64,000 nt of DNA from an uncultured Holophagales bacterium (GCA_963842525.1 CAWJGT010000009.1:800001-864000), one strand, 5' to 3'. Shown: positions 22,175 through 42,675, numbered from the stretch's first letter. Numbers and translations: made by a program. The notes: generated by a model from the sequence alone, not told the origin.

Positions 22175-22951
22175 TCATGCCCCGCGGGCCCCCTTGGCTC
22201 CTGCAGCTCTCTCCTTGGCCGCCTGCGCCCGGTAGCTCTCGATGCTCAGCTCCAGGATCACCGAATGATGGACGATCCGATCCACCGCGGCCGCCGTCGT
22301 CATCGGGTCCTTGAAGATCTGCTCCCACTTGCTGAACACCAGGTTGCTGGTGATCAGCACCGAGCGCCTCTCGTACCGCTCGGCGATCAGGGTAAACAGA
22401 ACCTCCATCTCCTCGCGGCTTTGCTCGACGTAGCCGAGGTCGTCCAGGATCAGGGCTTCGAATCGGTCCAGCCGCTTCAGCTCGGCCGCCAGACGCAGAT
22501 CCCGCTTCGCGGCCAGAAGCCGCTGGACGATCTGATACGTCGGGGAAAACAGCACCGTCCGGCCCCCGCGCACCAGCTCCTGGCCCAGACCGCAGACCAG
22601 GTGCGACTTGCCCGTCCCAGGGTTGCCAAACACGATCAGATTGGTGGCTTGGTCCAGAAACGAGCCGTCCTGAAGAGCGGCCAGGGCCGCCCTGGCCTTG
22701 GGCGGAAGCCGGCCTACCTCGAAGCCCGCCAGGCTCTTTTCCCGCGGCAGCCTGGACTCCTGAAGCAGTCTCTCGACCCGGCGCTCGCACCGTTCGCTGG
22801 CCTCTTGCTCGGCAAGGGCCAGAAGATACCCCTCGTGGGTGAGCCCCCCACGCACCGCCTGAGCGGCCACCGTCGCGTACTCCCGGGCGAAGGTCGGCAG
22901 GCACAACGACTTCAGCAGCAGCGGCAACCCCGCCTCGCTGGCCGGCTTCAC
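22175..22951 (-). CDS. istB: IS21 helper ATPase
   Basis: GNPGTGKSH Walker A, LILDDLGY, ITSN, AAVDRIVHH. Confidence 0.93.
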   Translation of the reverse strand: MKPASEAGLPLLLKSLCLPTFAREYATVAAQAVRGGLTHEGYLLALAEQEASERCERRVERLLQESRLPREKSLAGFEVGRLPPKARAALAALQDGSFLDQATNLIVFGNPGTGKSHLVCGLGQELVRGGRTVLFSPTYQIVQRLLAAKRDLRLAAELKRLDRFEALILDDLGYVEQSREEMEVLFTLIAERYERRSVLITSNLVFSKWEQIFKDPMTTAAAVDRIVHHSVILELSIESYRAQAAKERAAGAKGARGA

Positions 22952-24423
22952 AGGCCACCTCCTGCCGCGGCGATGCACTCGTCGTAGACCCGCAGGTCCG
23001 GAGGATCGATCCGGCACACCGGCGGCTCCAGGCGCACCGGCCGAAGGGCCGTCTGTACCTGCGCGAAGTCCCGCAGCTCGCCGCCCTCCAACAGGGCCGA
23101 AAGCGCACCCTCCACCGCGCTTTCTCCCGTGCTCGCCGCCAGGTGCAGAATCCGCACATACTCCACGTCCGCCCGCGCTCCGTGACGCCCCTCCAGCGCA
23201 TCATAGGTCTGCCGGAAAACCAAGCTCGGAAACAGCGCCTCCCGGTACCGGTAGCGCGCGAACGCTCCCGGCTTGCGGATCAACGACCAGATCAGGTGGC
23301 GATAGTCGATGGCGGCGTGACCGCGGCCCCGCAGGCGCTCCATCTCGGCCACCCGCTCACCGGCAAAGTGCACCTCGATCCGCTCCGCATACAGCCGAAT
23401 GTCCACCCACTCGCCGATCAGCCGCGAGGCCACCGAGTAGACGTTGTTGGCCACCCGCAGGGTCGAAAACACGCTGACCCGCACCCGCTCCCGCCGGAAG
23501 TCGTCCAGGCGCGACAGCGGCAGATCCCTCATCCGCTCCAGCTCCTCGCGCAGCTTGACGGCTCGGCCACGGTTGCGCCCCGAAAAGATCTCACCCAAAA
23601 ACACCTCGTACGCGGCGCGGCTCGAAAACTCCCGGCCCCCCCGCAGCAGAAGCGCCTGCTGGACAGCCCGCTTGAAGCGGTGGTGCGCCTGCTCCACATC
23701 GCCGTTTTCGTGGCCACGCCCAGGGGTGTTGCAGTCGGGCTGGACCTGGTAGTGCGCCAGCGCACCCAGGTAGCGCTCGTTGAACGTCCGGCCCCCCTCG
23801 CCCAGCTCGTGGGTGGCCGCCGAAAGGTTGTCCGTCCGGTGTAGCTTCGGCACCTTGCCCAACTCCCAGACGGCGGCCTGGAAACCCCCGATGAGAGCCT
23901 CGAAACTCTCCGAAAAGCAGATCCCGCCCGTCTCCCAGTTCGAATACGGCAACACGAAGTGGAACATCAGGTGGTCGAACGGCTCGCCCCCGAGGCAAAT
24001 CCCCAGCTCCGTCATGCTCGTGAAGTCGCTCTGGGCGTACTCCCCCGGCCGGTGTTCCTGCGCGAACATGACCTCCCGCTCGGGACCCTGCGACGCCCGC
24101 CAACGGCGGATCCGCCGCTGCAATGTACGCAGCTGACCGTCCGAAAAGCTCAGCTCCGGCCGCCCCCTCAGCAGCTCGAAGATCGTCACCGCCTCCAGGC
24201 CGGGCGCCTGCTTGAGCATCCCTTCGATCTCCGGCCACACCCCGGCAAACGGGTCCGGCCGGGTCCGATACTGCCGCATGACCTTGCGCTGGCCCGGAAG
24301 CGCACCCTCGCGATACCGCCGTGCCGTGTTCTCACTCATCCCAGAGCGCAGAGCTGCGCTCGACAGCGACTCTCCCTTGCCAAGTTCCATCCTCAACCTC
24401 CTTACCTGCTTATCCGTCAACAT
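22948..24423 (-). CDS. istA: IS21 transposase
   Basis: QSDFT, HRTDNLS, HENGDVE DDE motifs; stop overlaps istB start. Confidence 0.93.
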   Translation of the reverse strand: MLTDKQVRRLRMELGKGESLSSAALRSGMSENTARRYREGALPGQRKVMRQYRTRPDPFAGVWPEIEGMLKQAPGLEAVTIFELLRGRPELSFSDGQLRTLQRRIRRWRASQGPEREVMFAQEHRPGEYAQSDFTSMTELGICLGGEPFDHLMFHFVLPYSNWETGGICFSESFEALIGGFQAAVWELGKVPKLHRTDNLSAATHELGEGGRTFNERYLGALAHYQVQPDCNTPGRGHENGDVEQAHHRFKRAVQQALLLRGGREFSSRAAYEVFLGEIFSGRNRGRAVKLREELERMRDLPLSRLDDFRRERVRVSVFSTLRVANNVYSVASRLIGEWVDIRLYAERIEVHFAGERVAEMERLRGRGHAAIDYRHLIWSLIRKPGAFARYRYREALFPSLVFRQTYDALEGRHGARADVEYVRILHLAASTGESAVEGALSALLEGGELRDFAQVQTALRPVRLEPPVCRIDPPDLRVYDECIAAAGGGL

Positions 24424-24758: not shown

Positions 24759-25533
24759 GTGCGACACGAAGGGAGGTCTGATGTGAGCTGATTTGCCGAT
24801 TACAGAGAGACCTCCTGGGTCTCGAAGGCCAGCGGGTGGAAGTCCCGCCCGGGGAATTGTCGGTTCGCCCGGTAGCCACTGGAGCAGCCGAGCTCGAGCA
24901 ATCGTCCGGCTGAAGCCTCCGGGGAAGTCCTCGGTGCAACCGAGGTGCAAATGCGCAGGCCGAAAAGCACGTGAACCCTGAGCAGGCCTCGATAGTTTCT
25001 CGCTGGAGCCGACCCTCCTGCCATAAGGGGAAGGCCGTCGGGGGGTGGGGGAGCAACCGACCGAAGAACCCGTCCTCTCCAGCCGGGGTAGTGGGGTCAG
25101 CATGCGCAGACAAGGTCTTTGAGGCAACGTGTGAGATCCACATAGGTGGTGGGTCGCGGCCACCAACCGAGGTGATCTGAAATGGTCAGCCTCGGGCCGT
25201 GTGGAAGTCGGAGGGGCCCATGGTACCGAGGAAGCCGGGTAATGCCGGTGGAGGGACGGAGCCCTGGTTCGGGCATGCTTCTCAACGAGAAGGAGACCGG
25301 GAATTGACGATGAGTCTAGAACCCGATCAAGTCGAGTGTAGACGCCCGCCTTATTTCGTGACCGCCGCCTGAGTTTTTCCCAGTTTTCAGCGTGGTCAGG
25401 TAGATTCGTCGGCGCAGGAGTGCGGGACGATTTTGCCTGTGGAGAGGTCGGGCAAGGCAAGCGAAGCCCGCCGGGCTCTCCTTGTGTCTTTTGGCGGACC
25501 GGGGATGACCCGACGGGCTTCCGAGAGGAGGCC

Positions 25534-26097: not shown

Positions 26098-26188
26098 GTT
26101 GGTAACTACCCATCGCAGGGTTCTGCCACGAAGCTACTGGCGGGGGCTGTGGGATGGTCCCAGAGCCCGATTGCGGAGACTTCGTGCG

Positions 26189-27517
26189 ATGGATGAGAGC
26201 CAAAGAGAGCAGATTGCGTTGTTTCGCCACAGCGTCATTGCCGAGCTGATCAGCCGGCCGTTGGCGCCACGCGAAAAAGAGAAGCTGTTGTGTGCGATCG
26301 CGGAAAAGACGTGGACGATCCCGGGCAGCGCGCGCAGCCACGTCGGCCGTTCGACGGTGCGAGATTGGCTCGAGCTGTACCAGATCCATGGGTTTGAGGG
26401 GCTCAAGCCGGGCCCGCGTACCGATGCCGGGCGCTCGCGGGCGATCCCGGAGGAGGTGCAGGATCTGCTGCTGGCGCTGCGGGCCGAGCGGCCCGGTGCT
26501 TCGCTCGACAGCCTGATCCGCGCCGTGCATCTGTGCGGCCGCTTTGCGCCCAATCTGCGGCTGTCGCGCAGCAGCGTGCACCGCTTCTTCGCCGCCCAGG
26601 CGGTGCCGGCCCGCCAAGGGTCCAGCGCCGAGCCGGACGCTTTGGCTTTCACCTTTCCGCATGTCAACGACCTGTGGACCTCCGACCTGATGCACGGGCC
26701 CCGCCTGCTGGTGCCGGGGCGCAAGGACGGCGGCAAGACCTACCTCTACGCCTTCCTCGATGACGCCTCGCGCATGGTGCCGTTTGCCGCCTTCTACCTG
26801 GCCGAAAACGCCGCCTGCTTCCAGGACGCTCTGAAGCAGGCTCTGCTGCGCCGCGGCCTGCCGCGACGGCTCTACTGCGACAACGGCGCCACCTTCCGCA
26901 CCCACCACCTGCAGGTCATCTGCGCCACGCTGAACATCTCCCTGGTCCACTCCCGGCCCCACAAGCCGCGCGGTCGCGGCAAGATCGAGCGCTTCTTCCG
27001 CCACGTCCGCACCGCCTTTGTCCCCCACCTCACCAGCGAGGTCCTCGCCGATCTGGCCCAGCTCAACCGCGTCTTCTGGGCCTGGCTGGAGGGCGAGTAT
27101 CACCAGACTGCCCACGGCGGCCTGGACGGGCAAACGCCTCTGGACCGCTTTCTGAAGGACCAGGCCCTGATCCGCCCGGCCCCCGAGCACCTGGAGGCCT
27201 GGCTGCGCATGAAGGTCACCCGCCGGGTCGGCCGCGACCGCACCGTCCACCTCGACGGCCGTCTCTATGAGGCTCCCGATGGCTATGCCGGTGAGACCGT
27301 CGACGTCCTCTACGATCCCTATGACCCCGCCCGGCCCGTCCACTTTTGCCGCAAAGGCCAGAGCGCCGAGCTGCCTCTGCGCCGGCTCGACCTCGCCACC
27401 AACGCCACCCTGCGCCGACTCGAAAGAAACAGCGAGCCGGCCAGAGAAGCGCCCACCACCGGCATCAGCTACCTCGAGCTCATCGCCAAGAAGTTCTATC
27501 AGGGGGAGCCCCAGTGA
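26189..27517 (+). CDS. DDE transposase/integrase (rve + Mu-type C-terminal domain)
   Basis: WTSDLM, FLDDASR, YCDNG, GKIERFF. Confidence 0.9.
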   Translation: MDESQREQIALFRHSVIAELISRPLAPREKEKLLCAIAEKTWTIPGSARSHVGRSTVRDWLELYQIHGFEGLKPGPRTDAGRSRAIPEEVQDLLLALRAERPGASLDSLIRAVHLCGRFAPNLRLSRSSVHRFFAAQAVPARQGSSAEPDALAFTFPHVNDLWTSDLMHGPRLLVPGRKDGGKTYLYAFLDDASRMVPFAAFYLAENAACFQDALKQALLRRGLPRRLYCDNGATFRTHHLQVICATLNISLVHSRPHKPRGRGKIERFFRHVRTAFVPHLTSEVLADLAQLNRVFWAWLEGEYHQTAHGGLDGQTPLDRFLKDQALIRPAPEHLEAWLRMKVTRRVGRDRTVHLDGRLYEAPDGYAGETVDVLYDPYDPARPVHFCRKGQSAELPLRRLDLATNATLRRLERNSEPAREAPTTGISYLELIAKKFYQGEPQ

Positions 27518-28320
27518 ACCTCTATACCACCGCCTTCGGCTTCACCCGGCCGCCCTTCCACGGCCCCCTCACCGCCGACTCTCTGTTTCGGCCTCAGGGG
27601 CTCGAAGAGCTCCACAGCCGTCTGCGCTACCTGGTCGACTCCAGGGCCATCGGCCTGCTCACCGGCGAGCCGGGCAGCGGCAAAACCACCGCCCTGAGGC
27701 GACTGCGCGACGATCTCCACCCCGACCAGGTGCGCGCTGTGTACCTGCACGACACCCTGGTCAACCCCGCCGACTTCTGCCGCCAACTCGCCCTTGCACT
27801 CGGCCTCCAGCCCGAATGGTCTCGCGCCATGACCTTCCGCCTCGTCCAGCAAGAGATCCAACGCCTCGTCAAAGACCGCCACATAACCGTCCTGCTCATC
27901 GTCGACGAAGCCCACAACCTCAGGCCCGACGTCCTCGCCCTCTTCCCCCTGCTCGCCAACTTTGAATGGGACGCAGAAGGACGGCTTGCCTTTCTCCTGG
28001 CCGGTCAATCCGGATTGCGACAGATCCTGCGCCTGTCGCATCTGGAGGCCCTCGCTCAGCGCATCACCATCCGCTTCACCCTGCGCGGCTTCGACCGAGA
28101 CACCACCTGCTGCTACCTCGAACATCGCCTCAAGATCGCCGGCCTGGATCGACCCCTCTTCACCGCCCCCGCCCAGGAAGCCCTCTTTGAAGCCTCCCAG
28201 GGCATCATGCGCAGAATCGACACCCTGGCCCACCACGCCCTGGCCGCCGCAGCCACTTCCAGAGCCAAGCTCGTCGAGCCCGAGCACGTCCTGCAAGCCG
28301 CCGAGGAGATGCGCTCATGA
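27514..28320 (+). CDS. AAA ATPase (ExeA/TnsC/MuB-like)
   Basis: GEPGSGKTT, LIVDEAHNL, LAGQ; GTG overlaps the transposase stop. Confidence 0.88.
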   Translation: MNLYTTAFGFTRPPFHGPLTADSLFRPQGLEELHSRLRYLVDSRAIGLLTGEPGSGKTTALRRLRDDLHPDQVRAVYLHDTLVNPADFCRQLALALGLQPEWSRAMTFRLVQQEIQRLVKDRHITVLLIVDEAHNLRPDVLALFPLLANFEWDAEGRLAFLLAGQSGLRQILRLSHLEALAQRITIRFTLRGFDRDTTCCYLEHRLKIAGLDRPLFTAPAQEALFEASQGIMRRIDTLAHHALAAAATSRAKLVEPEHVLQAAEEMRS

Positions 28321-28559
28321 ACACACCCGAACCCATCCTCGACTACCTGCAAAACCAGGTCCCCGAGTACCCGTTCGATCGCAAGCTCGACGAAGAGTTT
28401 GTCGACGAGCTGATCGCAGACTTCCAGGATCTCAACATTCTCGAGGAGACCAAGACCTTCAGGTGGTATCACAACAACCGGCCGGCCGCCCGTTTCAAGA
28501 ACGTCCGTGTCGGCCTGCGGCGCTGGATTGCCAACTCCTGGGCGCGAAGACCAGAATGA
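28317..28559 (+). CDS. small transposon-encoded protein (80 aa)
   Basis: ATGA overlap with ATPase stop, GGAG RBS, lies within the IRs. Confidence 0.7.
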   Translation: MNTPEPILDYLQNQVPEYPFDRKLDEEFVDELIADFQDLNILEETKTFRWYHNNRPAARFKNVRVGLRRWIANSWARRPE

Positions 28560-30335
28560 ATCAAAGCAACTGCTGAAAACTCGGCCCCTTCGGTCAAAAA
28601 CAGTCCCGGATTCCACCGCCACCCGGCCCAATCCGGGACTGCTCTCTTCCCCCTTCTGTCCGCCACGAAATATTTCGAAAAGGTGGCCACGGAATTACGC
28701 GGGACTCGACATCGAGCGACTCCGGAAGAAGCTGTATGAGAAGGCCAAGCGGGAGCCAGACTTTCGGTTCTACACGCTGTACGACAAGGTGTGCTGGGCG
28801 GAAACCCTGGAGAGGGCCTACCGACAGGCGAAAGCCAACGACGGAGCGCCCGGAGTCGACGGGGTCCGGTTTGAGGACATTGAGGCGTACGGTGTAGAGC
28901 GGTGGCTGGCCGAGCTTCGGCAGGAACTGGTGGAAGAGACCTACCGCCCCCAACCGGTGCGGCGGGTGATGATCCCGAAGCCCGGCGGAGGCGAGCGTCC
29001 CCTCGGAATCCCGACCATCAGGGATCGGGTGGTGCAGACCGCCGTCGTGCTGATCCTTGAGCCGATCTTCGAAGCTGATTTCGAGGACAACGTCTATGCC
29101 TACCGGCCGGAGCGCAGTGCGCACGGCGCACTGGCCGAGGTGCAGGGGCGGTTGTATGGAGGCCAGCAGCACGTCGTAGATGCCGACGTGACGAAGTACT
29201 TCGACACCATCCCCCACGCCGAGCTGTTGCAGAGCGTGGCCCGGCGGGTGGCCGACGGGAAGATCCTGCATCTGCTCAAGCTGTGGCTGAAATCCCCGGC
29301 GGAAGAGAGGGATGAGAGGGGAAACCGGCGGATAACAGGCGGCAAGAAGAGCAAGCGGGGGACTCCTCAAGGCGGAGTTGTTTCACCTCTGATGGCTAAC
29401 ATCTACATCAACCGTCTTCTGCGCCACTGGAGGAAGACCGGGGCGACGCAACGGTTGGGACAGATCGTCTCCTATGCCGATGACTTCGTGATTGTCTGCG
29501 CAAGCCGCCGCCAGGCCGAAGAAAGTCTGGCGCTGGTATCGCGCTGGTTGGCGAAGCTCGGGCTGACGCTTCATCCCACCAAAACGCGCCTCTGTCACGC
29601 CCGAGAAGAGCCGTTTGACTTCCTGGGCTACACCTTCGGGCCGGTGCGGCACTGGCTGAGCGGGAAGAGATTCATCTCGGCTCGGCCATCCAAGAAGGCC
29701 CAGAAGAGGCTCAAGGAGAAGATCAACATCCGGCTACGCCGGGGAAACCCAACCCCTTGGCCCAAGCTGCGAGACCGGCTCAACCGACTCCTGTCGGGGT
29801 GGGCCGAGTACTTCAGCTTCGGTTTTACGGGCCAAGCTGACACAGCCATCAGCTGGCACGTGCGGGCACGGGTTCGGCGATTCCTCTGCCGGCGGCATAA
29901 GCTGCGCGTCAGCGGAACCAGCCGATTCAGCTACTCTGAGATCCATGGCAAGGCGGGAGTGATCGACATCCGCCAGAGGCGTCTGCAAGGAAGTCCCGTG
30001 CATGCCCTCTCGTGAAGCCCGTCCGAGAGCCGGATGCGGGAGATCCGCAAGTCCGGTTCGATGAGCGGCGGTGGGAAACGGAGACACGGCCGAGACTGAG
30101 GCACCGGCGAGTGGCGAAAGCCGCCGGAAACAGCTACTCCCTCGACCTACAGACACCGCGCCCGCCGCCGACTCTACCCTCTGAAGCGGGCACTTATTCG
30201 GCTCAACCAAAATCCGCCCGAGCGTGTCTATTCATGTAAAGGCAAGGAGGGACTCAGTGGATCACGGGTCGGGATCGATGTGTGACGATTGCACGCAAGA
30301 GCTTCTCTACAGATCGATGACCGAGAGGAGCGAAG

Positions 30336-31118
30336 ATGGCAAGCGATGACCCTAAGACCGGGAAGCCTGCCCCGGGCTCCGGTCAGAACGTGGTTCGTGG
30401 GGACAACTTCGGCTTGATCAACGTGGGTGGCAGCATCGGCGGCAGTGCCACCGTGGTTCATGCGCAGTCTCCGCCTCGGGTAGAGACCGCGCTCCCGTCC
30501 GGGGCGGCAGGGAGCAACTCCGTCATGCGCATTCTGTTCTTGGGAGCCAATCCGGAGGGCGCGCCATCCCTGCGCCTCGATCACGAGGTCCGGGAGATCG
30601 ACCTCGCGTTGCGCCAAGCCGACTTCCGGGATCGCTGCGACCTGCGCCAACAGAATGCCTTGCGGGTGACCGACCTGCAGAACGCGCTGCTGCGCCACCG
30701 GCCGCAGATCGTCCACTTCAGCGGCCATGGAGTTGCGGACGGGCTCTACCTGGAGGATGAAGCGGGGATGGTCCGCAAGGTCGAGGGGAGCGTCATAGCC
30801 AGGATTCTCGCCGTGTTCAAGAAACAGATCCGCTGCGTAGTGCTGAACGCCTGCTATTCCCGGGACCAGGCCGAGGCGATAGCCAGCGACATCGATTGCG
30901 TCATCGGCATGTCCACGGACATCGGAGACTTGGCGGCGGTCCGTTTCTCTACGGCCTTCTATGGAGCTCTCGCTTTTGGAAGCAGTGTCGCGACGGCCTT
31001 CGATTTGGGCTGCTCGCGGATCGATCTCGACGGCTTGGGGGAGGGAAACACTCCGCAACTGATCGCGTTCCGGCAGAAACCTGAAGAGGTCGTCTTCATC
31101 AAGGAGGAACTGAGATGA
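30336..31118 (+). CDS. CHAT-domain (caspase-like) protease with short N-terminal G/N-rich motif
   Basis: ILFLGANP, IVHFSGHG (His) and VVLNACYS (Cys): dyad intact. Confidence 0.88.
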   Translation: MASDDPKTGKPAPGSGQNVVRGDNFGLINVGGSIGGSATVVHAQSPPRVETALPSGAAGSNSVMRILFLGANPEGAPSLRLDHEVREIDLALRQADFRDRCDLRQQNALRVTDLQNALLRHRPQIVHFSGHGVADGLYLEDEAGMVRKVEGSVIARILAVFKKQIRCVVLNACYSRDQAEAIASDIDCVIGMSTDIGDLAAVRFSTAFYGALAFGSSVATAFDLGCSRIDLDGLGEGNTPQLIAFRQKPEEVVFIKEELR

Positions 31119-32104
31119 ACAGCCGAATGTCCGGACGACGTGCCTTTATCCTTGCGGTCTCGGTCCCCCTCCTCTCGCTCTCCTGCCAGCAGGTGCGGAT
31201 GATCGATCTCACCGGCGGTACCTATCTGAAGATCCAGTACAACGAGACAAGGCCGACCATGGCTCTCTTGACCACATCGGATCAGCCGTCCCTCAAGCAG
31301 GAGCGAATCGTCTCGGCCATCAGTACCTATCTCAGCCGCTGGTCCGAAAGCGAGAGCATCGAAGCACATGGCAGTATCATCGAGTTCTCGACCGTCTCCC
31401 AAGACAGGCGTCTCTCCCAGGCCTTCTCCGAAGAAGACATCCTGCAGTTTGTCATTGTTCCAGCGGCTCCAGGACCCGCCGCACCACCACCCATCGCTGA
31501 CCCTATCCTCGTTCCCTCCGATACGTGCACGTATGCTCTCGATGATGAGTGCGACGAACCGCGCCTCTGCTCTGCGGGTACCGACGCAACAGATTGTGGC
31601 AGCATTCAATCTTACACCGAGCAGATTGATGACAGTTGCACCTATGCAAACGATAGTGTCTGTGACGAACCAGCCCCCTGCCAGGTGGGAACCGATTCCA
31701 CAGATTGCAGAGAGACCATCCGTACGTCAGTCTCCCTTCCGACCTTCGAAATAGTGGTCATCCCGTTCTCTTGGATTCACAGCGTCAGAACCTCCGGGAA
31801 AGGCGATCTGACGCTCACCATCGAGGATGAGTTGAGGGAAAAGCTCGAGACAATCCTGAATGTGGATCCCGAAGCAGTTTTGCAGGTCCATCAGGACGGC
31901 ACCATTCTGGCCAGTGGACTTCTCAGAAACTACTACCAGCGCGGCTCTTTGCGTCTCCCGGCCGACGATCTGGACCTGCTGCCGTTCGTTGGAGAAGCGA
32001 TCCGGGTCGAGGCTCTGAAGAAGGATGGAGCCGTTCAACTCCTGGAAGCCATGAAGCTCGATCCGCCTTCCACCAGACCCGGAAGCTCGAAATATCCCTG
32101 GTAG
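31115..32104 (+). CDS. lipoprotein with two Cys-rich repeats, weakly SecD-periplasmic-like
   Basis: Lipobox LSLSC; IDLTGG; CTYAxDxxCDEPxxCxxGTDxTDC twice; ATGA overlap with the CHAT gene. Confidence 0.7.
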   Translation: MNSRMSGRRAFILAVSVPLLSLSCQQVRMIDLTGGTYLKIQYNETRPTMALLTTSDQPSLKQERIVSAISTYLSRWSESESIEAHGSIIEFSTVSQDRRLSQAFSEEDILQFVIVPAAPGPAAPPPIADPILVPSDTCTYALDDECDEPRLCSAGTDATDCGSIQSYTEQIDDSCTYANDSVCDEPAPCQVGTDSTDCRETIRTSVSLPTFEIVVIPFSWIHSVRTSGKGDLTLTIEDELREKLETILNVDPEAVLQVHQDGTILASGLLRNYYQRGSLRLPADDLDLLPFVGEAIRVEALKKDGAVQLLEAMKLDPPSTRPGSSKYPW

Positions 32105-32126
32105 GCCCGACTCAAGGAGATTCAAG

Positions 32127-33665
32127 ATGAACAGGATTACCCGGCTGATCTGTGCAAGGGTCTACTGCTTCGGCCTCTTTGCCAGCATTCCTACCCTTCA
32201 TCGTCTGATGGGCCTGCCATTTCGGGGATTCGACCGGGATCCGGGAATCGATCGCCGGCTCGCGCTCTTCCACACGATCCAATCTCTGCTGCTGTCCTTG
32301 ATGTTCCTGATCCCTGCCACGCTGATCTATTTCTTCGCTCCGGCTACATCCCGAGCCGCCGCGATCGTCCTGTTCCTCCTCTGCTTCCTGAAGATCGCCG
32401 TCCTCAATTTTTGGATTGCCCGCCGCTTTTTCCAGAAGCCGGCGAGCGCAGCGAGGTTCAAGCTGCCTTTGCTCGCGCGCCTGGCGGGATACTTCAGCGA
32501 AAGACTACATCCCCTGTCTGTCTCCGATGGAATCGAGAGCCCTGGGGAGGCAGTCTACTTCCGCGGTTCGCGCCCTTTTGTCGGGTTCGGTTCAGAGATC
32601 AATGCCTGGACCCTCGCCATCGATACGACAAGCCGGTCGCATGTAGAGTCCGCTGCCCTGGACTCGCCGCATCAGGCCTCCGATTTGGAGATCGAAGACC
32701 TCTACCGCGCGATCGAGAAGAAGGTCGAGACCGTCGAGGTCGATGGAGTCACCACTCGTCGCATCTTCTTCATGGACGGCGACATTCCGGACGAGGAGCG
32801 GTACCTTCGGGGAGGCAGGTACGGGCGGCCATCTCCCTACCTGCCGGAAAACCTCCTGAAGAACCTGGACAAGCCTGGAGAGCGAGGGCGCCAATACCTG
32901 GTGCTCTCCGTACTCAACTCCGCCCGCGACCTTATGGTGAGTCAGTTCATCCGTTTCTCCCGCTCCGGTAAATTCATCTTCTGCGAGTTTGCATCGCACG
33001 TGATCCCACCTGGCAAGTCGAAGTTCTATACCTTCGACGTCCTCTTCCAGTATCACCCGGCGCTCTATGCCCTGATGGGACCACTCGTCTTATTTGCGAT
33101 CGGCCTCCTCGCGACCCTTGTCGCTCCTTTCACCGAAAGCTGGTTCTGGCTTGGCCCGGGCGTAGGCCAGAAGTACCTGGAAATGCTGAGTGTAGAAGGA
33201 TATGTCGAGTATGTGTTTGAGCAGATGCTGGGCGGATGGTTCGCTTATCGGATAACGGGCTTTTCTATCTTCCTGCTGACTGCCTTCGTCCTTTGGAGAG
33301 GAGTGCTCTGGTTGAGCAATGTCGTCGGGGTTTTCCTTCGGCTCAGGCACAACTTTGGGATCGACGTCTCCTGCCGGGAGCGCTGGGCTAGCGGTACCCG
33401 GCTTGCCTACTTTGACTTACAGGAGACGGTTCGGGCGCTGAAGATCCAGGAGAGGATCATCACGGGAGGCCTGATCGATTGCCTAGAGGGGCACGGGATC
33501 GATACGTCGGACCTAAAGCAGAGCATCACGGCGTTCATCAATCAGGGCGTGATCAATTCAGGGGAGATTCGCGGCAATGTATCGAACAAGATCGCCTCCA
33601 TCGTCTTCAGGCGGGATCGGAAGCGCAGGGCGCGCCGCGGGCTTCACCCCTTGATGGCTCCATAG
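32127..33665 (+). CDS. multi-pass membrane protein with C-terminal G/N-rich motif
   Basis: Several TM segments; C-terminal LEGHGIDTSDLKQSITAFINQGVINSGEIRGNVSN; AAGGAG RBS. Confidence 0.75.
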   Translation: MNRITRLICARVYCFGLFASIPTLHRLMGLPFRGFDRDPGIDRRLALFHTIQSLLLSLMFLIPATLIYFFAPATSRAAAIVLFLLCFLKIAVLNFWIARRFFQKPASAARFKLPLLARLAGYFSERLHPLSVSDGIESPGEAVYFRGSRPFVGFGSEINAWTLAIDTTSRSHVESAALDSPHQASDLEIEDLYRAIEKKVETVEVDGVTTRRIFFMDGDIPDEERYLRGGRYGRPSPYLPENLLKNLDKPGERGRQYLVLSVLNSARDLMVSQFIRFSRSGKFIFCEFASHVIPPGKSKFYTFDVLFQYHPALYALMGPLVLFAIGLLATLVAPFTESWFWLGPGVGQKYLEMLSVEGYVEYVFEQMLGGWFAYRITGFSIFLLTAFVLWRGVLWLSNVVGVFLRLRHNFGIDVSCRERWASGTRLAYFDLQETVRALKIQERIITGGLIDCLEGHGIDTSDLKQSITAFINQGVINSGEIRGNVSNKIASIVFRRDRKRRARRGLHPLMAP

Positions 33666-33701
33666 CCGCTGACGCCTTGTTCATGAAGACGGAGGCCGGC
33701 C

Positions 33702-34148
33702 GTGACGATCAATACAGGGATCCTCAACTCCGGGAAGATCGGAGGTAACGCGAGTGTAAGCAACCTGGCAGGACACTTTGGCAATGACGTTCATGTGACG
33801 TCCACCGCCTCTGTGGTGGACATCCAAGGGCTGATAGAGCGGGTCCGTGTGCAGATCCAGGGGAAACTCGGTTTCCCCGGTCGGGATGCGGAGATCCGAC
33901 AAAAACTGGACCAGTTACTTGGCGAATTAGAAAAGCTAAGGGAACGCTACCCTGCGGAAACCAGGCGGGTCGTGAGCGCGCTCGAGTTGGTGATCCAGGA
34001 GCTGGGCACAGAGAAGCCAAACCAGGACTTCCTGGCATCTTCTTGGGAGCTTACCAAGCAGGCCTTGGGTAATATGGTCCAGTTGGAACCGGCCATTGCG
34101 GTCCTCGGAGAGAAGTTCGCTGAGAGCGTTTCGCAAACCCTGGCCTGA
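33702..34148 (+). CDS. small protein: N-terminal G/N-rich motif plus helical bundle
   Basis: MTINTGILNSGKIGGNASVSN followed by amphipathic helices; GGAGG RBS. Confidence 0.75.
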   Translation: MTINTGILNSGKIGGNASVSNLAGHFGNDVHVTSTASVVDIQGLIERVRVQIQGKLGFPGRDAEIRQKLDQLLGELEKLRERYPAETRRVVSALELVIQELGTEKPNQDFLASSWELTKQALGNMVQLEPAIAVLGEKFAESVSQTLA

Positions 34149-34286: not shown

Positions 34287-34766
34287 ATGAGAGCGCAAGC
34301 GATCACAAGGATGCTTTTTGGGAGTGCAATGCTATTCTTGTTTACTGCACCTGCCTATTCAGCGCCTGTATTCTATTCGTGGGGCGGCGAGAAAATAATC
34401 AAGATAATGGACTTTCCCGACAGTTCTGACCTTCAAAGGTTGGACGGAAACTATGTAGATGCAGGGTATCGATATCAACAGGTGACCATCTTCTTTATTC
34501 CTGTCTGGAATTATAATGAGAAATGGTGTGGATATATTGGTAATGACAACGAATATCTCGACCTTGACAGACAAAGCTTGTCAGAATTGGCAGAGGCGGC
34601 AGGTTTAAGCTTGCCTGAAAGCCCTTCGTTGCCCTTTTGGGATTCCATTGGGGGAAAACTCTTGCTTGGAGTTATTTTATTAATGTATTTTGGCTACAAA
34701 GGGAGTGGCGCTGAGAAGAAAGGAGAAGAGATAGGCCAACCACAGGGAGGCAGCATGAAAGCCTAA
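34287..34766 (+). CDS. hypothetical exported/membrane protein (low GC)
   Basis: Signal peptide, C-terminal TM helix, AAGGAG RBS, AT-rich codons. Confidence 0.7.
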   Translation: MRAQAITRMLFGSAMLFLFTAPAYSAPVFYSWGGEKIIKIMDFPDSSDLQRLDGNYVDAGYRYQQVTIFFIPVWNYNEKWCGYIGNDNEYLDLDRQSLSELAEAAGLSLPESPSLPFWDSIGGKLLLGVILLMYFGYKGSGAEKKGEEIGQPQGGSMKA

Positions 34767-35433
34767 GCCCCAGGGGGAGTTTCCCCAGCTCTGCCGGGGT
34801 GGCAGTAGAAGTTTTACATTTCAGGGAGTGTCCATCGCGGAAACTTCCCTCGTGAGCTGCCAAGCACACGAGAGGAGAGGAAACCACGATGGACAAGTTT
34901 GACAGTTTGAACCACACGACGTGGGAGTGCAAATAACACATCGTTCATCCCAAGTGCCGCCGGAAGGTGCTGTACGGCCAGTCGCGGTCGGATTTTGGGG
35001 AGGTGTTTCGCAAACTGGCAGCTCAGAAGGAGAGCCGGATAGAGGAAGGACACTTGATGCCCGATCACGTCCATATGCTGGTGTCGATCCGACGAAGTAC
35101 TCGGTGCCGCAGGTCGTGGGGTTCATCAAGGGCAAGAGCGCCATCCATCTGGCGAGGGTGTATGGGGAGCGCAAGCGCAACTTTGTTGGGCAGCGCTTCT
35201 GGGCGCGGGGATACTTTGTCTCGACAGTCGTTCGGGATGAGGCTGCGATTCGGGAGCACATCAAGAAGCAGGAAAAAGAGAACGAACGATCGCACCAGCT
35301 CAGTCTCTGGCGATGAGTCGCCACCGGAACGGTGTCGCAAACCCCGAGGGGTCGCATTAGCGACCTTCCAGCCGCTTTGAGCGGCTCACAGATTTAAAGC
35401 CCGGCTCTGCCGGCTCTGCCGGGGATACTTACT
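34767..35433 (+). mobile_element. decayed IS200/IS605-family element (boundaries approximate)
   Basis: CTCTGCCGGGG-containing hairpin-like motifs at both ends of a tnpA pseudogene. Confidence 0.7.
34889..35316 (+). pseudogene. tnpA: IS200-type Y1 transposase pseudogene
   Basis: HTTWECK*H, DHVHML (HUH), IKGKSA, FWARGYFVSTV; internal stop and frameshift. Confidence 0.85.
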
Positions 35434-35990: not shown

Positions 35991-36563
35991 ATCCGGTACT
36001 ACCGCCGTCCCCTCAATCTCCACCAACGCCCGGTCTTCCAGCAGCGCCGCGACGACCAGCAGAGACATCGGCGGATAGTGGCGGCCGATTACCTCGCGGT
36101 AGATGCGGCCGATGTCGCGGCGGGTGGCGAGGTAGGCGGGCTTGTCGGTGATGTACCAGGTCAGGCGGACGAGGTGCTCCGGTCCGGCTCCGGCCTCCTT
36201 GAGGACGGCTACGATGTTTTCCAGAGCCTGACGGACCTGCTCGGCGAGGTCGTCGTCTCGAACTGGCAGGTGGCGGGATTCCAGCCCACTTGGCCGGCCA
36301 CGAAGACCTGACGACCCTGGACGGCCATGCCGTTCGCATAGCCCACCGGGGCTGCCCAGCCAGGAGGCTGGAGCTTCACGCTTCGCGCTCCCTCAGGCGG
36401 AAGCGCTGGAGCTTGCCGGTCAGGGTGCGGGGGAGGGCCTCGACGAATTCGATCTGGCGCGGGTACTTGTAGGGAGCGATCTGGCTCTTGACATGGGTCT
36501 GCAGCTCCTTGACCAGCTCGGGGCCGCCCTCCGGGCCGCCCTCGTTGCCGGGACGGAGGACGA
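35991..36563 (-). pseudogene. degenerate duplicate of the RidA gene and 3' end of the CoA ligase (copy of 39445..40005)
   Basis: Highly similar direct repeat, with a 1-bp deletion in the RidA copy and a 12-bp tandem duplication in the ligase copy. Confidence 0.85.
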
Positions 36564-37196
36564 CTTTCCTTACCCTCGGTCCCAGACGACGCCCCTGCAG
36601 GCCCTTCTCGCCGATCAGAAGATCAGATTTCGACGGTTTTAGGTGAGCGTTAACAGGCGGTGACCCTGGTGATCCTGTCGCTGGTGTCGCTGTTGGGCCG
36701 CGACCGGCAGGCGATCGCGATCGGGCGCACGGCCTACGCCGGGCGGCGTCCTGTTCTGTCCTGTTCGGCTGGCACCTCTGCCTGGGGAGGTGCCAGATCT
36801 TTTGCGGTTGCCCCCATCGGAAGGACAAGAAAGCCCTGGCACCCACCGCGGAATACGTGAATCGATACCCGTCATCCGGGATCTCATTCAGGCATCCAAG
36901 GAACTGGGACAACATGCGTATGGCGTCCCTGGTTGTCTTCGACCGTCCGAGGTTTCAGAATTTTTCCGAAGCCCTCCAGAATCGTCCGAAGGCGCCTCGA
37001 GACTTCCCCTCCCGACGCTTCTCCACTGCATCGAAAGACGGGATAAGAACCTGAAACCCCGTCAACTGGGCCGCGCCTGTCCGAAGCGGATAAACAAGTG
37101 TCTCCACTTCAGTGTCACAAGGAGAAGATCTCATGCGGTAGACGTCAGGTATGCAGCACCTCCCTGCCTGCTCAATGCGAAAAAGGAGTCTGAACC

Positions 37197-39441: not shown

Positions 39442-39834
39442 TTAATCCGGCACCACCGCCGTAGCCTCGATCTCCACCAGCGCCCGGTCTTCCAGCAGCG
39501 CCGCGACGACCAGCAGAGACATCGGCGGATAGTGGCGGCCGATCACTTCCCGGTAGATGCGGCCGATGTCGCGGCGGGTGGCAAGGTAGGCGGACTTGTC
39601 GGTGATGTACCAGGTCAGGCGGACGAGGTGCTCCGATCCGGCCCCGGCTTCCTTGAGGACGGCGACGATGTTTTCCAGGGCCTGACGGACCTGCGCGACG
39701 AGGTCGTCGGTCTCGAACTGGCAGGTGGCGGGATTCCAGCCTACCTGGCCGGCTACGAAGACCTGACGACCCTGGACGGCCATGCCGTTCGCATAGCCCA
39801 CCGGGGCTGCCCAGCCAGGCGGCTGGAGCGTCAC
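39442..39834 (-). CDS. RidA/YjgF-family protein
   Basis: [21 protein letters not shown]; GTG overlaps the ligase stop. Confidence 0.88.
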   Translation of the reverse strand: MTLQPPGWAAPVGYANGMAVQGRQVFVAGQVGWNPATCQFETDDLVAQVRQALENIVAVLKEAGAGSEHLVRLTWYITDKSAYLATRRDIGRIYREVIGRHYPPMSLLVVAALLEDRALVEIEATAVVPD

Positions 39835-41468
39835 GCTTCGCGCTCCCTCAGGCGGAAGCGCTGGAGCTTGCCGGTCAGGGTGCGGGGAAGGCTCTCCACG
39901 AGCTCGATCTGGCGCGGGTACTTGTAGGGAGCGATCTGGCTCTTGACATAGGTCTGCAGCTCCTTGACCAGCTCGGGGCTGCCCTCGTTGCCGGGACGGA
40001 GCACGATGAAGGCCTTGACCACTTGGCCGCGCTCGTCGTCGGGCACCCCGATGACCCCGCACTCCAGCACCTTGGGATGCTCCAGGAGCACGTTCTCCAC
40101 CTCGACGCCCGAGATGTTGATCCCCGCGGAGATGATCATGTCGTCCGTGCGCGCCTGGTACCAGAAGTAGCCGTCGTCATCCATCAGGAAGGAGTCGCCG
40201 GTCAGGTTCCAGCCGTTCTGCACGTAGCCGCGTTGCCGCTCGGGATCGTCCAGGTAGCGGCAGCCCGTGGGACCCTTGACCGCCAGCTTGCCGACAGTTC
40301 CGGGAGGCAGCGCGCGGCCGTCCTCGTCCACGATCTGTGCCTGGTAGCCGGGCACCACCCGGCCCGTTGCGCCGGGACGGATACCGTCCCCGGACTCGCT
40401 GATGAACATGTGCAGCATCTCGGTCGAGCCGATGCCGTCGATGATCCCGAGGCCGGTCGCCTCCTTCCAGGACTCCCAGGTGGGACGCGGCAGGTGCTCG
40501 CCCGCCGATACGCAGGCCCGCAGGCTCGAGATGTCGTGCTTCGGGAGCATCGGGAGCATCGCCCGGTACGCGGTCGGCGCCGTGAACACGACCGTGGCCC
40601 GGAAGTCCTGGATGCCCTGGATGAGCTGCGGCGGCGCGGCCTGCTCCAGCAGCACGGCCGAGGCGCCGATCCGCATCGGAAACAGGATCAGGCCCCCGAG
40701 CCCGTAGGTGAAGGCGAAGGGCGGCGAGCCGGCGAAGATGTCGTCGCGGTCGGGCTTGAGCACGTAGGGCGGGAAGCAGTCGCAGGCCGCGATCACGTCG
40801 CGGTGGAAGTGGACCGTCCCTTTTGCGTTGCCCGTGGTGCCCGAGGTGAAGGCAATGAGGGCGATGTCGTCCGCCGCGGTGTCGCAGTTGTCGAAGGTGG
40901 GGGGCTTGTCCCGCATCAGGTCTTCGAGCGACCCCGGCTTGCCGGAGCTCAAGTGGACGACCCTCGCCCCTTCCCGCGGCCGGCCGTCGCCGGTTTTTGC
41001 CATGGCCTCCTCGCACTCGCCGCAGATGCGCGCGTCGGTCAGGGCGAGGCGGATGGCTGCCTTGTCGGCCATGTAGACCAGCTCCCGCGAGCGCAGCAGC
41101 GGCATGGTGCAGACCACGATGCCGCCGGCCTTCAGGATCGCGAACCAGCAGGCCGCCGTCATCGGGTTGTTGTAGCCGCGCAGGAGCACGCGGTTGCCCG
41201 GGACGAGGCCGAGGTCTTCCACCAGGACGCGAGCGATGCGGTTCGCGGTCTCCAGCAGCTCGCGGTAGGTCCAGCGTCCGCCGGAGAAGTGGAAAACGGT
41301 CCGGTCGCCGTCGCCCGCGGCGATCCGCGCGTCGAGGAGCTCGGCCGCGCAGTTCATCCGGTCCGGGTAGGCGAGCTCCGGGATGCCGCTGTAGTCCATC
41401 TCGGGCCATTGCTCGGGCGGGGGCAGGAGATCGCGGCAGAAGGTATCCACATGAGCTGATTCAGGCAT
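39831..41468 (-). CDS. 2-aminobenzoate/benzoate-CoA ligase family protein
   Basis: Starts [10 protein letters not shown]; FTSGTTG, DGIGSTE, TGKLQR motifs. Confidence 0.9.
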
Positions 41469-42675
41469 CTGGCGTCTCCTTGAGGAGCTGACCGGCGATG
41501 ACCAGCTTCTGGACCTCGCTGGTCCCTTCGTAGATCCGCAGGGCACGGACTTCGCGGTACAGGCGCTCGACCGGCGCGCCCGCGAGCACGCCGCGCCCGC
41601 CGAGGAGCTGCACGGCGTCGTCGATGACGCGCTGGGCTGTCTCGGTGGAGTAGAGCTTGGCCATGGCCGCCTCGCGCGTGACCCGCGGCGCGCCCGCGTC
41701 CCGCGTCCAGGCCGCGCGATAGACCAGGAGCGCGCTGGCGTCCACACCGACGGCCATGTCCGCCAGCCGCGCCTGGGTGAGCTGCAGGTCGGCGAGAGGC
41801 TTGCCGAAAACCTTTCTTTTGCGCGCGTGGCTCACCGCTTCGTCCAGGGCGCGGCGGGCGAAGCCGAGCGCCGCGGCCCCTACGGTGGAGCGGAACACGT
41901 CCAGCGTGCCGAGCGCGATCCGCAGCCCGCGGCCGGGCTCGCCGATCAGGGCCGAGGCGGGCACACGGCAGCGCTCGAAGCGGATCGTGCCCAGCGGGTG
42001 CGGCGCCATCAGGTCGAGCCGCGCGGTCACGGTCAAGCCGGGGTTGTCCGCTTCCACTACGAAGGCTCCGAAACCTTTTTCTCCCAGCTCGGGCATGCGG
42101 CAGAAGGCCACGTAGACGTCCGCGAGCCCCGCGTTGGAGATCCAGGTCTTCTCGCCATCGATCACATATCCCGCCCCGTCGCGGTGGGCGGTCGTGGTCA
42201 TGGCGCCGACGTCGGAGCCGGCCTCGGCCTCGGACAGCGCGAACGCCGGGATGGCTTCTCCGGAGGCGACCTTCGGCAGCCACTGCCGGCGCTGCTCCTC
42301 CGAGCCGAAGAGGGAGATGGGACCGCTGCCCAGGCCCTGGAGAGCGAAGACGAAGTCGGCGAGGCCGGAGGTCCGGGCCAGGGTCTCGCGGATCAGGCAG
42401 AGCGAGCGGACGTCGAGCCTGTTCCCGACTGCATACCGCAGCCAGCCGCCGGATGCGAGACGGCGGACGAGCTCGCGGCAGGTGCCGTCGAGGGACCCCT
42501 CACCCCCCTGGCCCCCCTCTCCCATCCCCTCCGCCTCCTTTTCTCCTCCCGGGAGGGGGGGCGATGGGAGAGGGAGGGGTCCGATCTCGCGCTCCGTCCA
42601 CTCCGCCAGCTCGCGGGCGAGAACGCGGTGCGCCTCATCGAAGAACGGCCAGGAAAGAAAGGTTTCGTCTGCCAT
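41461..42675 (-). CDS. acyl-CoA dehydrogenase with in-frame palindromic-repeat insertion
   Basis: [26 protein letters not shown]; insert [28 protein letters not shown]. Confidence 0.88.
42496..42579. repeat. palindromic repeat element inside the acyl-CoA dehydrogenase gene
   Basis: CCCCTCACCCCCCTGGCCCCCCTCTCCCATC...GATGGGAGAGGGAGGGG. Confidence 0.8.

Follow-up and report, generated by a model that had tools for sequence, protein, structure and literature searches.

What purpose is served by a short glycine-, asparagine- and hydrophobic-rich motif that recurs near one terminus of three otherwise unrelated proteins is the question raised by a four-gene operon of an uncultured Holophagales bacterium. 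The operon lies within a 64,000-nucleotide stretch of DNA (GCA_963842525.1, CAWJGT010000009.1:800001-864000), the whole of which is referred to here as the window. Its genes encode a caspase-like protease of the CHAT family, a putative lipoprotein (LIPO), a membrane protein (TM) and a small helical protein (SMALL). An original prediction, made from the DNA sequence, took the operon for a candidate amyloid-type signalling system. Judged by the sequence comparisons below, the motif probably serves homotypic signalling of the amyloid type, joining a membrane-anchored sensor to two effectors.

The four open reading frames exist as predicted, all on the + strand and tightly packed over 30336-34148. 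The ATG start of LIPO overlaps the CHAT stop by 4 nt, TM begins 22 nt past the end of LIPO and SMALL 36 nt past the end of TM. The three motif stretches translate exactly as they had been quoted.

30336..31118, + strand: CHAT (caspase-like) protease, 260 aa; PF12770 and PADLOC 'chat'
31115..32104, + strand: LIPO, putative secreted protein or lipoprotein, 329 aa; without a Pfam family
32127..33665, + strand: TM, membrane protein, 512 aa; without a Pfam family
33702..34148, + strand: SMALL, small helical protein, 148 aa, with a GTG start; modelled with AlphaFold2
30402..30458, + strand: CHAT N-terminal motif, residues 23-41, DNFGLINVGGSIGGSATVV; one of three genome-wide pattern matches
33537..33587, + strand: TM C-terminal motif, residues 471-487, INQGVINSGEIRGNVSN; the most conserved block of its family
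33708..33764, + strand: SMALL N-terminal motif, residues 3-21, INTGILNSGKIGGNASVSN; one of three genome-wide pattern matches

Only CHAT could be given a family. It matches PF12770 at E=4.9e-9 (36.5 bits, cutoff 24), which places it among CHAT proteins, and the PADLOC 'chat' model at 1.2e-15, with the SAVED_CHAT model also matched; a Pfam scan names no domain in LIPO, TM or SMALL. From N- to C-terminus the protein consists of the terminal motif, a proline-rich linker and the CHAT domain with His131 and Cys173, and this dyad, predicted to be intact, is invariant in 120/120 aligned relatives. In PADLOC-DB 2.0 LIPO and TM have no match and SMALL matches only PDC-M14B at E=0.038, and the four window proteins correspond to no single known anti-phage defence system of that collection. 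Effector-associated domain (EAD) families are absent from all four by Pfam scan, and a promoter and terminator scan found nothing beyond the level seen in shuffled sequences.

Motif sharing and the TM-SMALL gene pair

The sharing of the motif by the three genes is far beyond chance. Six-frame translation of the whole 9.95 Mb genome, 19.9 million residues in all, gives exactly three matches to the pattern N.G[LIVMF][LIVMF]N.G, all of them in this operon and inside 3.4 kb, against 0.63 expected genome-wide from residue composition; a longer pattern that adds the following I-x-G is observed three times against 0.015 expected. Gapped local alignment of the TM tail with the SMALL head scores 55, compared with 25.5 +/- 5.2 and a maximum of 50 for shuffled sequences, and the N-terminus of the window CHAT aligned to that of SMALL scores 41, a value equalled by 2/500 shuffles. 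Because it aligns less well than TM and SMALL do with one another, the CHAT motif is the most divergent and weakest of the three copies. The proposed place of CHAT in the circuit rests, as a matter of sequence, on the pattern match, on the likeness to SMALL, and on P0020, a CHAT relative at 84% identity whose scores are 48 with the TM tail and 51 with SMALL. By direct count the three motifs total 55 residues, 36 of which are G (12), N (10), I (8) or V (6), and P does not occur; the composition agrees with the bias that the available text of the survey by Dyrka et al. (10.1101/2020.01.06.895854) gives for bacterial amyloid signalling sequence (BASS) motifs, which are rich in G, N, Q, V and I and poor in P, K and L.

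A word-based comparison gave 16 relatives of TM, the window protein included, and scans of genome and metagenome contigs yielded 22 TM loci; linkage was counted on the 19 in which the TM gene is covered to its 3' end. A SMALL homologue carrying the motif lies directly downstream of TM in 18/19 loci, often overlapping it (one of the 18, L022, is frameshifted, and L019 is the sole locus without SMALL), and the placing of a short motif at the termini of adjacent products, a feature of BASS-type gene pairs, is present to that extent. At 33-45% overall identity, the most conserved part of TM is the block A-[FY]-I-N-Q-G-V-I-N-S-G-x-I-x-G-N, with I471, N472, Q473, G474, I476, N477, G479, I481 and G483 invariant in 21 sequences. 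In the SMALL family, too, no block is better conserved than the motif: homologues begin M-x-x-[IV]-N-x-G-I-I-N-x-G-x-I-G-G-N-A, and N4, G6, N9, G11, G14 and G15 are invariant in 14 of them. The expectation that the motif would be conserved in homologues and that the genes would occur together is borne out for TM and SMALL. BLAST detected no CHAT gene in the 22 related TM loci; the conserved core is a two-gene TM and SMALL module that does not include CHAT.

Beyond these close relatives TM belongs to a large superfamily. A search with the TM alignment profile recovered 1333 cluster representatives at E<=1e-3 and 784 at E<=1e-10, the clusters being drawn at 50% identity and 1333 being a lower bound. 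In distant members the match covers the alpha/beta domain and the membrane part at the N-terminus, and most of the 143 C-termini listed end '...FLDxHxIDTSDLKERxxxILNSGVIVSGGxxxAxxLAVGxGA...', a homologous G/N/V-rich tail that follows the conserved '...IDTSDLKER...' helix at the position of the window motif. An N-terminal FHA domain is present in 4/11 superfamily members scanned. Members are found in Actinomycetota, Pseudomonadota, Desulfobacterota and the probable acidobacterium of the window, and the protein Atlas assigns TM only to unnamed clusters, mostly actinobacterial. Outside the window's own genome (G000), a sample of 300 further genomes of the phylum yielded no member of the TM family, among 300 scored genomes of the class of Massilia one was seen only in the Massilia genome, and the phage collection held no TM relative.

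Searches of plasmid records with tblastn added four actinobacterial TM loci (L054-L057; three from Streptomyces, one from Nonomuraea), and these reveal how the motif behaves over longer distances. A small open reading frame of 119-134 aa follows each TM homologue, and its N-terminus matches the tail of its own TM protein, as in 'NNGIIAGEGAKVESSSVASGEK' against 'NNGITATGGSSVVGNAVASGKN' and, from a second pair, 'GSNFGNAPGSNFGNAPGSSF' against 'GTNYGNAPGSNFGHAPGSHF'. The motif differs among the four loci yet matches within each of them; in L055 both partners carry a GSNFGNAPGS repeat. When all tails were scored against all heads over 13 loci, with shuffles as control, the own partner ranked 1/13 in 4/4 distant loci, at scores of 55-113 against 43 or less between loci and shuffle maxima of 45 or less. 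The proposal that the motif would co-vary within loci holds for TM and SMALL in these four. Matching within a locus and divergence between loci, a second feature of BASS-type systems, is seen here; a matching neighbour is likewise present in 6/6 of the kin CHAT loci described below.

Two of the distant loci deserve separate mention. The TM member of Nonomuraea gerenzanensis (L055:5527-7509) has an N-terminal FHA domain (E=7.9e-14) in addition to the tandem GSNFGNAP repeat found in both partners, and its locus adjoins translation genes (the EF-Tu region), not an obvious island. On a mobilizable plasmid of Streptomyces griseorubiginosus (L057:1615-3548), the module of TM and the small protein is immediately preceded by a split OLD/GajA-like pair, one gene for an AAA ATPase and one for a Toprim-type 'ATP-dependent endonuclease'.

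CHAT proteases sharing motifs with neighbouring genes

CHAT belongs to a large family of effectors. Relatives numbered 2356, and the family counts that follow refer to the best 120 of these. A related N-terminal motif, N.G-h-h-[AVS]-G, precedes the proline-rich linker in 39/120 listed relatives, typically as 'ISGNxNSGIIAGGDIRGGVxLG'. The N.G..N.G form, with a second asparagine, is confined to the window CHAT and P0020 (2/120 listed), and 21/120 listed relatives score at least 40 against the window TM tail, above the window CHAT itself. The idea that the window CHAT had exchanged its motif to match TM and SMALL was dropped on these counts. In other close relatives the position of the motif is taken by EAD7, a TIR domain or a REC (receiver) domain, and EAD7 was present in 4/8 CHAT relatives scanned. 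On cyanobacterial plasmids the CHAT domain lies inside open reading frames annotated as NACHT, TIR, SAVED or metallophosphoesterase, among others.

The original prediction cast CHAT as a motif-coupled effector, and this part of it is borne out in other genomes. Six kin loci have a CHAT protein with an N-terminal motif, and in 6/6 the best match elsewhere in the locus is the adjacent gene, the partner scoring 41-73 against 29-41 for the next match. The partners are diverse: three HEAT-repeat proteins of ~950-1060 aa, two membrane proteins of ~300 aa and one DUF6232 protein. The two ~300-aa membrane proteins are encoded directly upstream of CHAT and carry the motif at their C-terminus. The DUF6232 (PF19744) partner, L047:1804-2418 in kin genome G029, is likewise a membrane protein, and its C-terminal motif matches the N-terminus of the CHAT protein encoded directly downstream. 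A two-gene arrangement of a membrane protein with a C-terminal motif followed by a CHAT protease with an N-terminal motif therefore exists elsewhere. The HEAT partners (L043:10027-12867, L044:6456-9605 and L045:6082-9261, of kin genomes G024, G058 and G023) give weak HEAT-repeat matches, with a G/N/V motif near the N-terminus and a hydrophobic segment at the end; they may represent another class of non-NLR receptor for motif-coupled CHAT effectors.

The three-way arrangement has fared less well as a unit. CHAT has been seen next to TM only in the window and probably in one metagenomic relative at 84-90% identity, the latter being probable because the longest contig given for P0020 and that given for P0002 have the same length, 13282 nt. 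Apart from G000, 401 genomes of the phylum yielded no close CHAT relative bearing the common motif, and 401 genomes of the class yielded only the TIR-CHAT fusion of G009. CHAT-domain genes as such are numerous in the lineage, with 20 matches in G000 and matches in 46/61 related genomes; several are broken by stops, e.g., G000:C9:599953-600252.

A proposed membrane-anchored circuit and its precedents

The AlphaFold2 (AF2) model of TM has a predicted local distance difference test (pLDDT) of 79.7 and a predicted template modelling score (pTM) of 0.79. Four hydrophobic segments lie at about 50-72, 77-98, 313-336 and 376-400, an alpha/beta domain spans about 141-293, and a helical C-terminal region ends in the motif and a basic tail. 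Charge bias would make the N-terminus, the tail and the alpha/beta domain all cytoplasmic and leave no more than a loop of ~36 aa on the outside, and the FHA fusions of TM relatives, FHA being cytoplasmic, agree with this topology. TM has no Foldseek match at E<=1e-3, and in a VIA-wide search the best Z of 5.8 (RnlA, KA1, START-like and TBP-like folds, matched to the alpha/beta domain) is in the noise range. The absence from TM of any NTPase or other Pfam domain fits the proposal that a membrane protein here takes the place of an NLR.

The SMALL model (pLDDT 67) is a five-helix bundle over 38-147, with helices at 38-55, 62-79, 84-101, 108-126 and 130-147, the last of them amphipathic or hydrophobic; most SMALL homologues end in a hydrophobic or Ala/Gly-rich helix. 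Both motifs are modelled at low confidence, as if disordered, beside well-modelled domains: pLDDT is below 50 for TM residues 474-485 and the basic tail, and for SMALL residues 1-36, which include the motif and a beta-prone stretch. It had been asked whether the helical domain would resemble Bell, HeLo or MLKL; the helical bundle is there in the model, and no significant fold match accompanies it, MLKL and NRG1 CC-R appearing only among the non-significant rows at E of about 1. SMALL homologues give sub-threshold Pfam matches to DUF4404 and DUF5955, and the protein Atlas offers weak leads only (DUF4404, TCAD2 and DUF5955).

LIPO has a signal-like N-terminus followed by a cysteine, which is the reason for its label. 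It has two Cys-rich inserts and a conserved C-terminal ...SKYPW, and the cysteine column is invariant in 6/6 aligned homologues; the lipobox is not canonical. Homologues of ~252 aa with the same ...SKYPW end lie directly upstream of TM in 8 other loci, all of one clade, and a weak match (E=1.7e-5) lies downstream of TM in L001. LIPO would be an accessory part of that clade. The original suggestion that it might be a co-receptor finds little footing in so narrow a distribution, and since both large domains of TM are modelled in the cytoplasm, a periplasmic role of this kind is only a guess.

On balance, and with a confidence just above an even chance, we read the operon as a horizontally acquired, BASS-like signalling and cell-suicide module whose receptor is anchored in the membrane and is not an NLR. 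The four-helix membrane protein would sit in the inner membrane with its alpha/beta domain and C-terminal tail toward the cytoplasm, and a trigger, for which envelope or membrane perturbation and phage infection are candidates, would cluster it; the FHA domain of some relatives suggests phospho-signalling. Clustered C-terminal G/N motifs could then stack into a beta-arch or beta-solenoid nucleus that would template the matching N-terminal motifs of the two effectors. SMALL would refold so that its hydrophobic last helix attacks the membrane, and the CHAT protease, like caspases, would gain its activity through induced proximity. Several features of amyloid signalling can be read from the sequences, viz., the terminal G/N/hydrophobic motif, its conservation in the lineage, its matched replacement between loci, the CHAT effector and the low-confidence models; as these are present and the receptor is not an NLR, BASS-type signalling with a membrane-protein receptor is the interpretation adopted here.

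The closest precedent is Bab/Agp (BASS11), an abortive infection system of E. coli (Ibarlosa et al., 10.1101/2024.11.07.622273). As described in the available text of that report, it too consists of two adjacent genes sharing a short terminal amyloid motif, one partner is small and helical with a hydrophobic terminal helix, and the receptor is not an NLR. In Bab the hydrophobic helix is N-terminal and the motif C-terminal, an order of which SMALL is the mirror image. The window operon differs in that a second effector, CHAT, shares the motif; the two motif classes are set side by side here by description. The same text places the BASS11 motif class on CHAT, TIR, EAD7 and NACHT proteins as well. 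In the original prediction the three-way, NLR-free arrangement was not known to have been described. With Bab/Agp published, 'NLR-free' is no longer a novelty, and an NLR receptor is not obligatory for a BASS-type pair.

The Bell-domain/NLR pairs of BASS1-10, as set out in the accessible part of Dyrka et al. (10.1101/2020.01.06.895854), likewise have a G/N/V/I-rich terminal motif of ~20-25 aa on adjacent collinear genes, and partners of one pair have matching motifs that vary from pair to pair, as in TM and SMALL. CHAT is among the alternative effector domains of that survey. Such pairs occur in filamentous bacteria, and the distant TM/SMALL loci are in Streptomyces and Nonomuraea; the host of the window, in contrast to these filamentous actinobacteria and cyanobacteria, is probably an acidobacterium. 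Unlike the NLR partners, TM has neither NB-ARC nor NACHT according to Pfam, which puts it outside the original NLR/STAND definition of BASS1-10, and SMALL is not detectably Bell-like. The receptors of bacterial amyloid signalling in the available text of these two reports are soluble (NLRs, and Agp in E. coli). A literature search found no description of this module or of such a membrane-protein receptor; the supplementary tables of the BASS papers, which lay outside that search, might list such architectures.

Two further systems share the principle. In fungal HET-S/NWD2 (PMC13506858, available text), a receptor motif nucleates a fold, templates the effector motif and frees a membrane-targeting helical domain, which is the logic supposed here; kingdom, receptor and motif differ, and the effector in the window gives no evidence of a two-rung pseudorepeat. 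For the EAD-coupled effectors of NTP-dependent conflict systems, insofar as the accessible text of Kaur et al. 2020 (PMC7159879) describes them, the principle is that a small homotypic adaptor, common to neighbouring genes, brings an effector to a core component. Members of the CHAT subfamily of the window bear EAD7 at the N-terminus in the scan given above. An EAD is a globular, folded domain of at least about 60 aa, whereas the window element is a low-complexity motif of 17-25 aa without an EAD match.

Alternatives, genomic setting and meaning

Several observations weigh against this interpretation and should be taken together. No structure prediction shows a fibril or a stack, and the amyloid nature of the motif is a predicted one; a complex prediction of TM 430-512 with SMALL, run without controls, gave interaction (ipSAE) scores of 0.00 and 0.01, which count neither for nor against the proposal. 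SMALL shows no likeness to Bell or HeLo, with no PDB match at E<=1e-3 and a best Foldseek E of 0.49. The window CHAT scores 27 against the TM tail, which 97/500 shuffles equal and which is not significant. Within the TM clade of the window itself the motif is nearly constant and the own partner ranks anywhere from 1 to 9 of 13; with so little variation, that rank is uninformative there, and covariation is therefore shown only across the distant loci. Homology of the window TM family, or of its distant relatives, to the ~300-aa CHAT partners of L048 and L029 was not seen with hhalign (probability 9% and 2%). The polarity, too, could be the reverse of that proposed, since the published pairs, in the available texts of the two BASS reports, have the motif at the effector C-terminus and the receptor N-terminus and here the supposed sensor carries it at the C-terminus. 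Finally, PADLOC knows none of TM, LIPO and SMALL, which makes a defence role a matter of context only.

An unlikely alternative is that the motif is a constitutive dock, a beta-strand or hairpin zipper that tethers SMALL (and CHAT) to the TM tail in a fixed hetero-oligomer with no templating or prion-like switch, as when a membrane scaffold carries a regulatory subunit. The near invariance of the motif in the window's TM clade is typical of a fixed interface, TM and SMALL are always adjacent and often overlapping, as obligate subunits might be, and neither matches a known defence family. Yet across the distant loci the whole motif is replaced and still matched, in one version by a low-complexity G/N/S/F repeat, and homotypic stacking therefore fits better than a shaped docking site. 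Like motifs moreover couple CHAT effectors to quite different partners, and in CHAT relatives the very position of the motif is taken by a homotypic adaptor domain (EAD7).

Somewhat less probable again is a circuit with its roles reversed, TM being the executioner, a pore or membrane disruptor acting via its tail, SMALL the sensor or trigger, and CHAT a second output or a regulator. TM does have four membrane helices, and the BASS and Bab/Agp pairs, in the available texts of both reports, put the C-terminal motif on an upstream, membrane-targeting effector and the N-terminal one on a downstream sensor, the same order and polarity as in TM and SMALL. The kin pairs speak otherwise: there a ~300-aa or DUF6232 membrane protein with a C-terminal motif precedes a CHAT protease with an N-terminal one, and as CHAT is plainly the effector, the membrane protein is left as the sensor. 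The N-terminal FHA domain of some TM relatives is an input-type module, and a helical bundle of 120-150 aa is small for a sensor.

That the motif might be a recognition or cleavage site of CHAT, or a processing or sorting signal, with TM, SMALL and CHAT as substrates, is very improbable. CHAT is an intact cysteine protease, and terminal motifs with G-G superficially resemble the cleavage sites of leader peptides. The TM/SMALL motif pair is nevertheless kept in 18 loci and 4 distant ones that show no CHAT gene, the motif is wholly different between loci, as a protease site would not tolerate, and the operon is without a peptidase-ABC exporter or an enzyme for ribosomally synthesized and post-translationally modified peptides (RiPPs). 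A reading as a double-glycine leader or RiPP precursor was dropped for want of exporter and modification genes. A chance low-complexity likeness, or the functionless leftover of a local duplication, to which the low complexity of short G/N-rich strings and the non-significant alignment of the window CHAT with the TM tail might incline one, has a negligible probability in the face of the genome-wide count and clustering of the pattern matches, the invariance across homologues at 33-45% identity and the covariation in distant loci.

The horizontal acquisition supposed for the module is in keeping with its setting. A patch of low GC (0.55-0.63; genome about 0.67) includes the operon, and 159 nt upstream of the operon a group II intron has its 3' end, which marks the left edge of an island:

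30025..30177, + strand: group II intron 3' end, domains V/VI; Rfam RF00029, 40.9 bits

Low GC, flanking mobile elements, rarity in the phylum and the OLD/GajA-like neighbour of the distant plasmid locus together point to a mobile module of the conflict type, for which a defence role would be suggested by context only.

The region upstream of the operon is a nest of mobile elements. The same intron has its D1-D4 part at 24830-24970 and a reverse transcriptase/maturase open reading frame at 28507-30015, and appears to be split by a nested element; this element codes for a Mu-like transposase (26099-27517) together with an AAA_22 ATPase (27346-28320). The intron is closely preceded, on the - strand at 22175-24423, by an IS21-type pair of an IstB-like ATPase and an rve/Mu-transposase_C_2 transposase. 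Downstream, 34921-35316 is the remnant of an IS200-type Y1 transposase that matches only the C-terminal half of the profile, and 36376-36915 is a 179-aa fragment with only the AMP-binding C-terminal domain, a full AMP-binding gene being present at 39831-41747; remnant and fragment resemble debris at the island's right-hand edge. Between the operon and this debris, the stretch of lowest GC (about 0.51) contains a 159-aa open reading frame (34287-34766) with a signal-like N-terminus and a hydrophobic C-terminal segment. It matches neither a Pfam nor a PADLOC family, occurs once in the genome and lacks a counterpart in the 22 TM loci.

A broader proposal is more tentative, falling somewhat short of an even chance: that the unnamed 4-TM superfamily, some of its members FHA-fused, is a new class of membrane-anchored amyloid-signalling receptors, each joined by a locus-specific motif to a small helical executioner, and that the receptor in the window is wired to two effectors in a branched, prion-like, NLR-free death circuit. 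If true, membrane-embedded proteins would also fire effectors through templated motifs, and the mechanism, given the 1333 clusters, would be far more widespread than has been thought and would extend beyond filamentous bacteria. A single receptor would drive two effectors, one of them caspase-like, in an arrangement near to the receptor-adaptor-caspase death logic of animals. The pairs on Streptomyces plasmids and the four-gene operon of the window are compact, directly testable systems, and the proposal brings a hypothesis at the level of function to a sizeable group of membrane proteins so far annotated as 'hypothetical', together with the small proteins encoded beside them.

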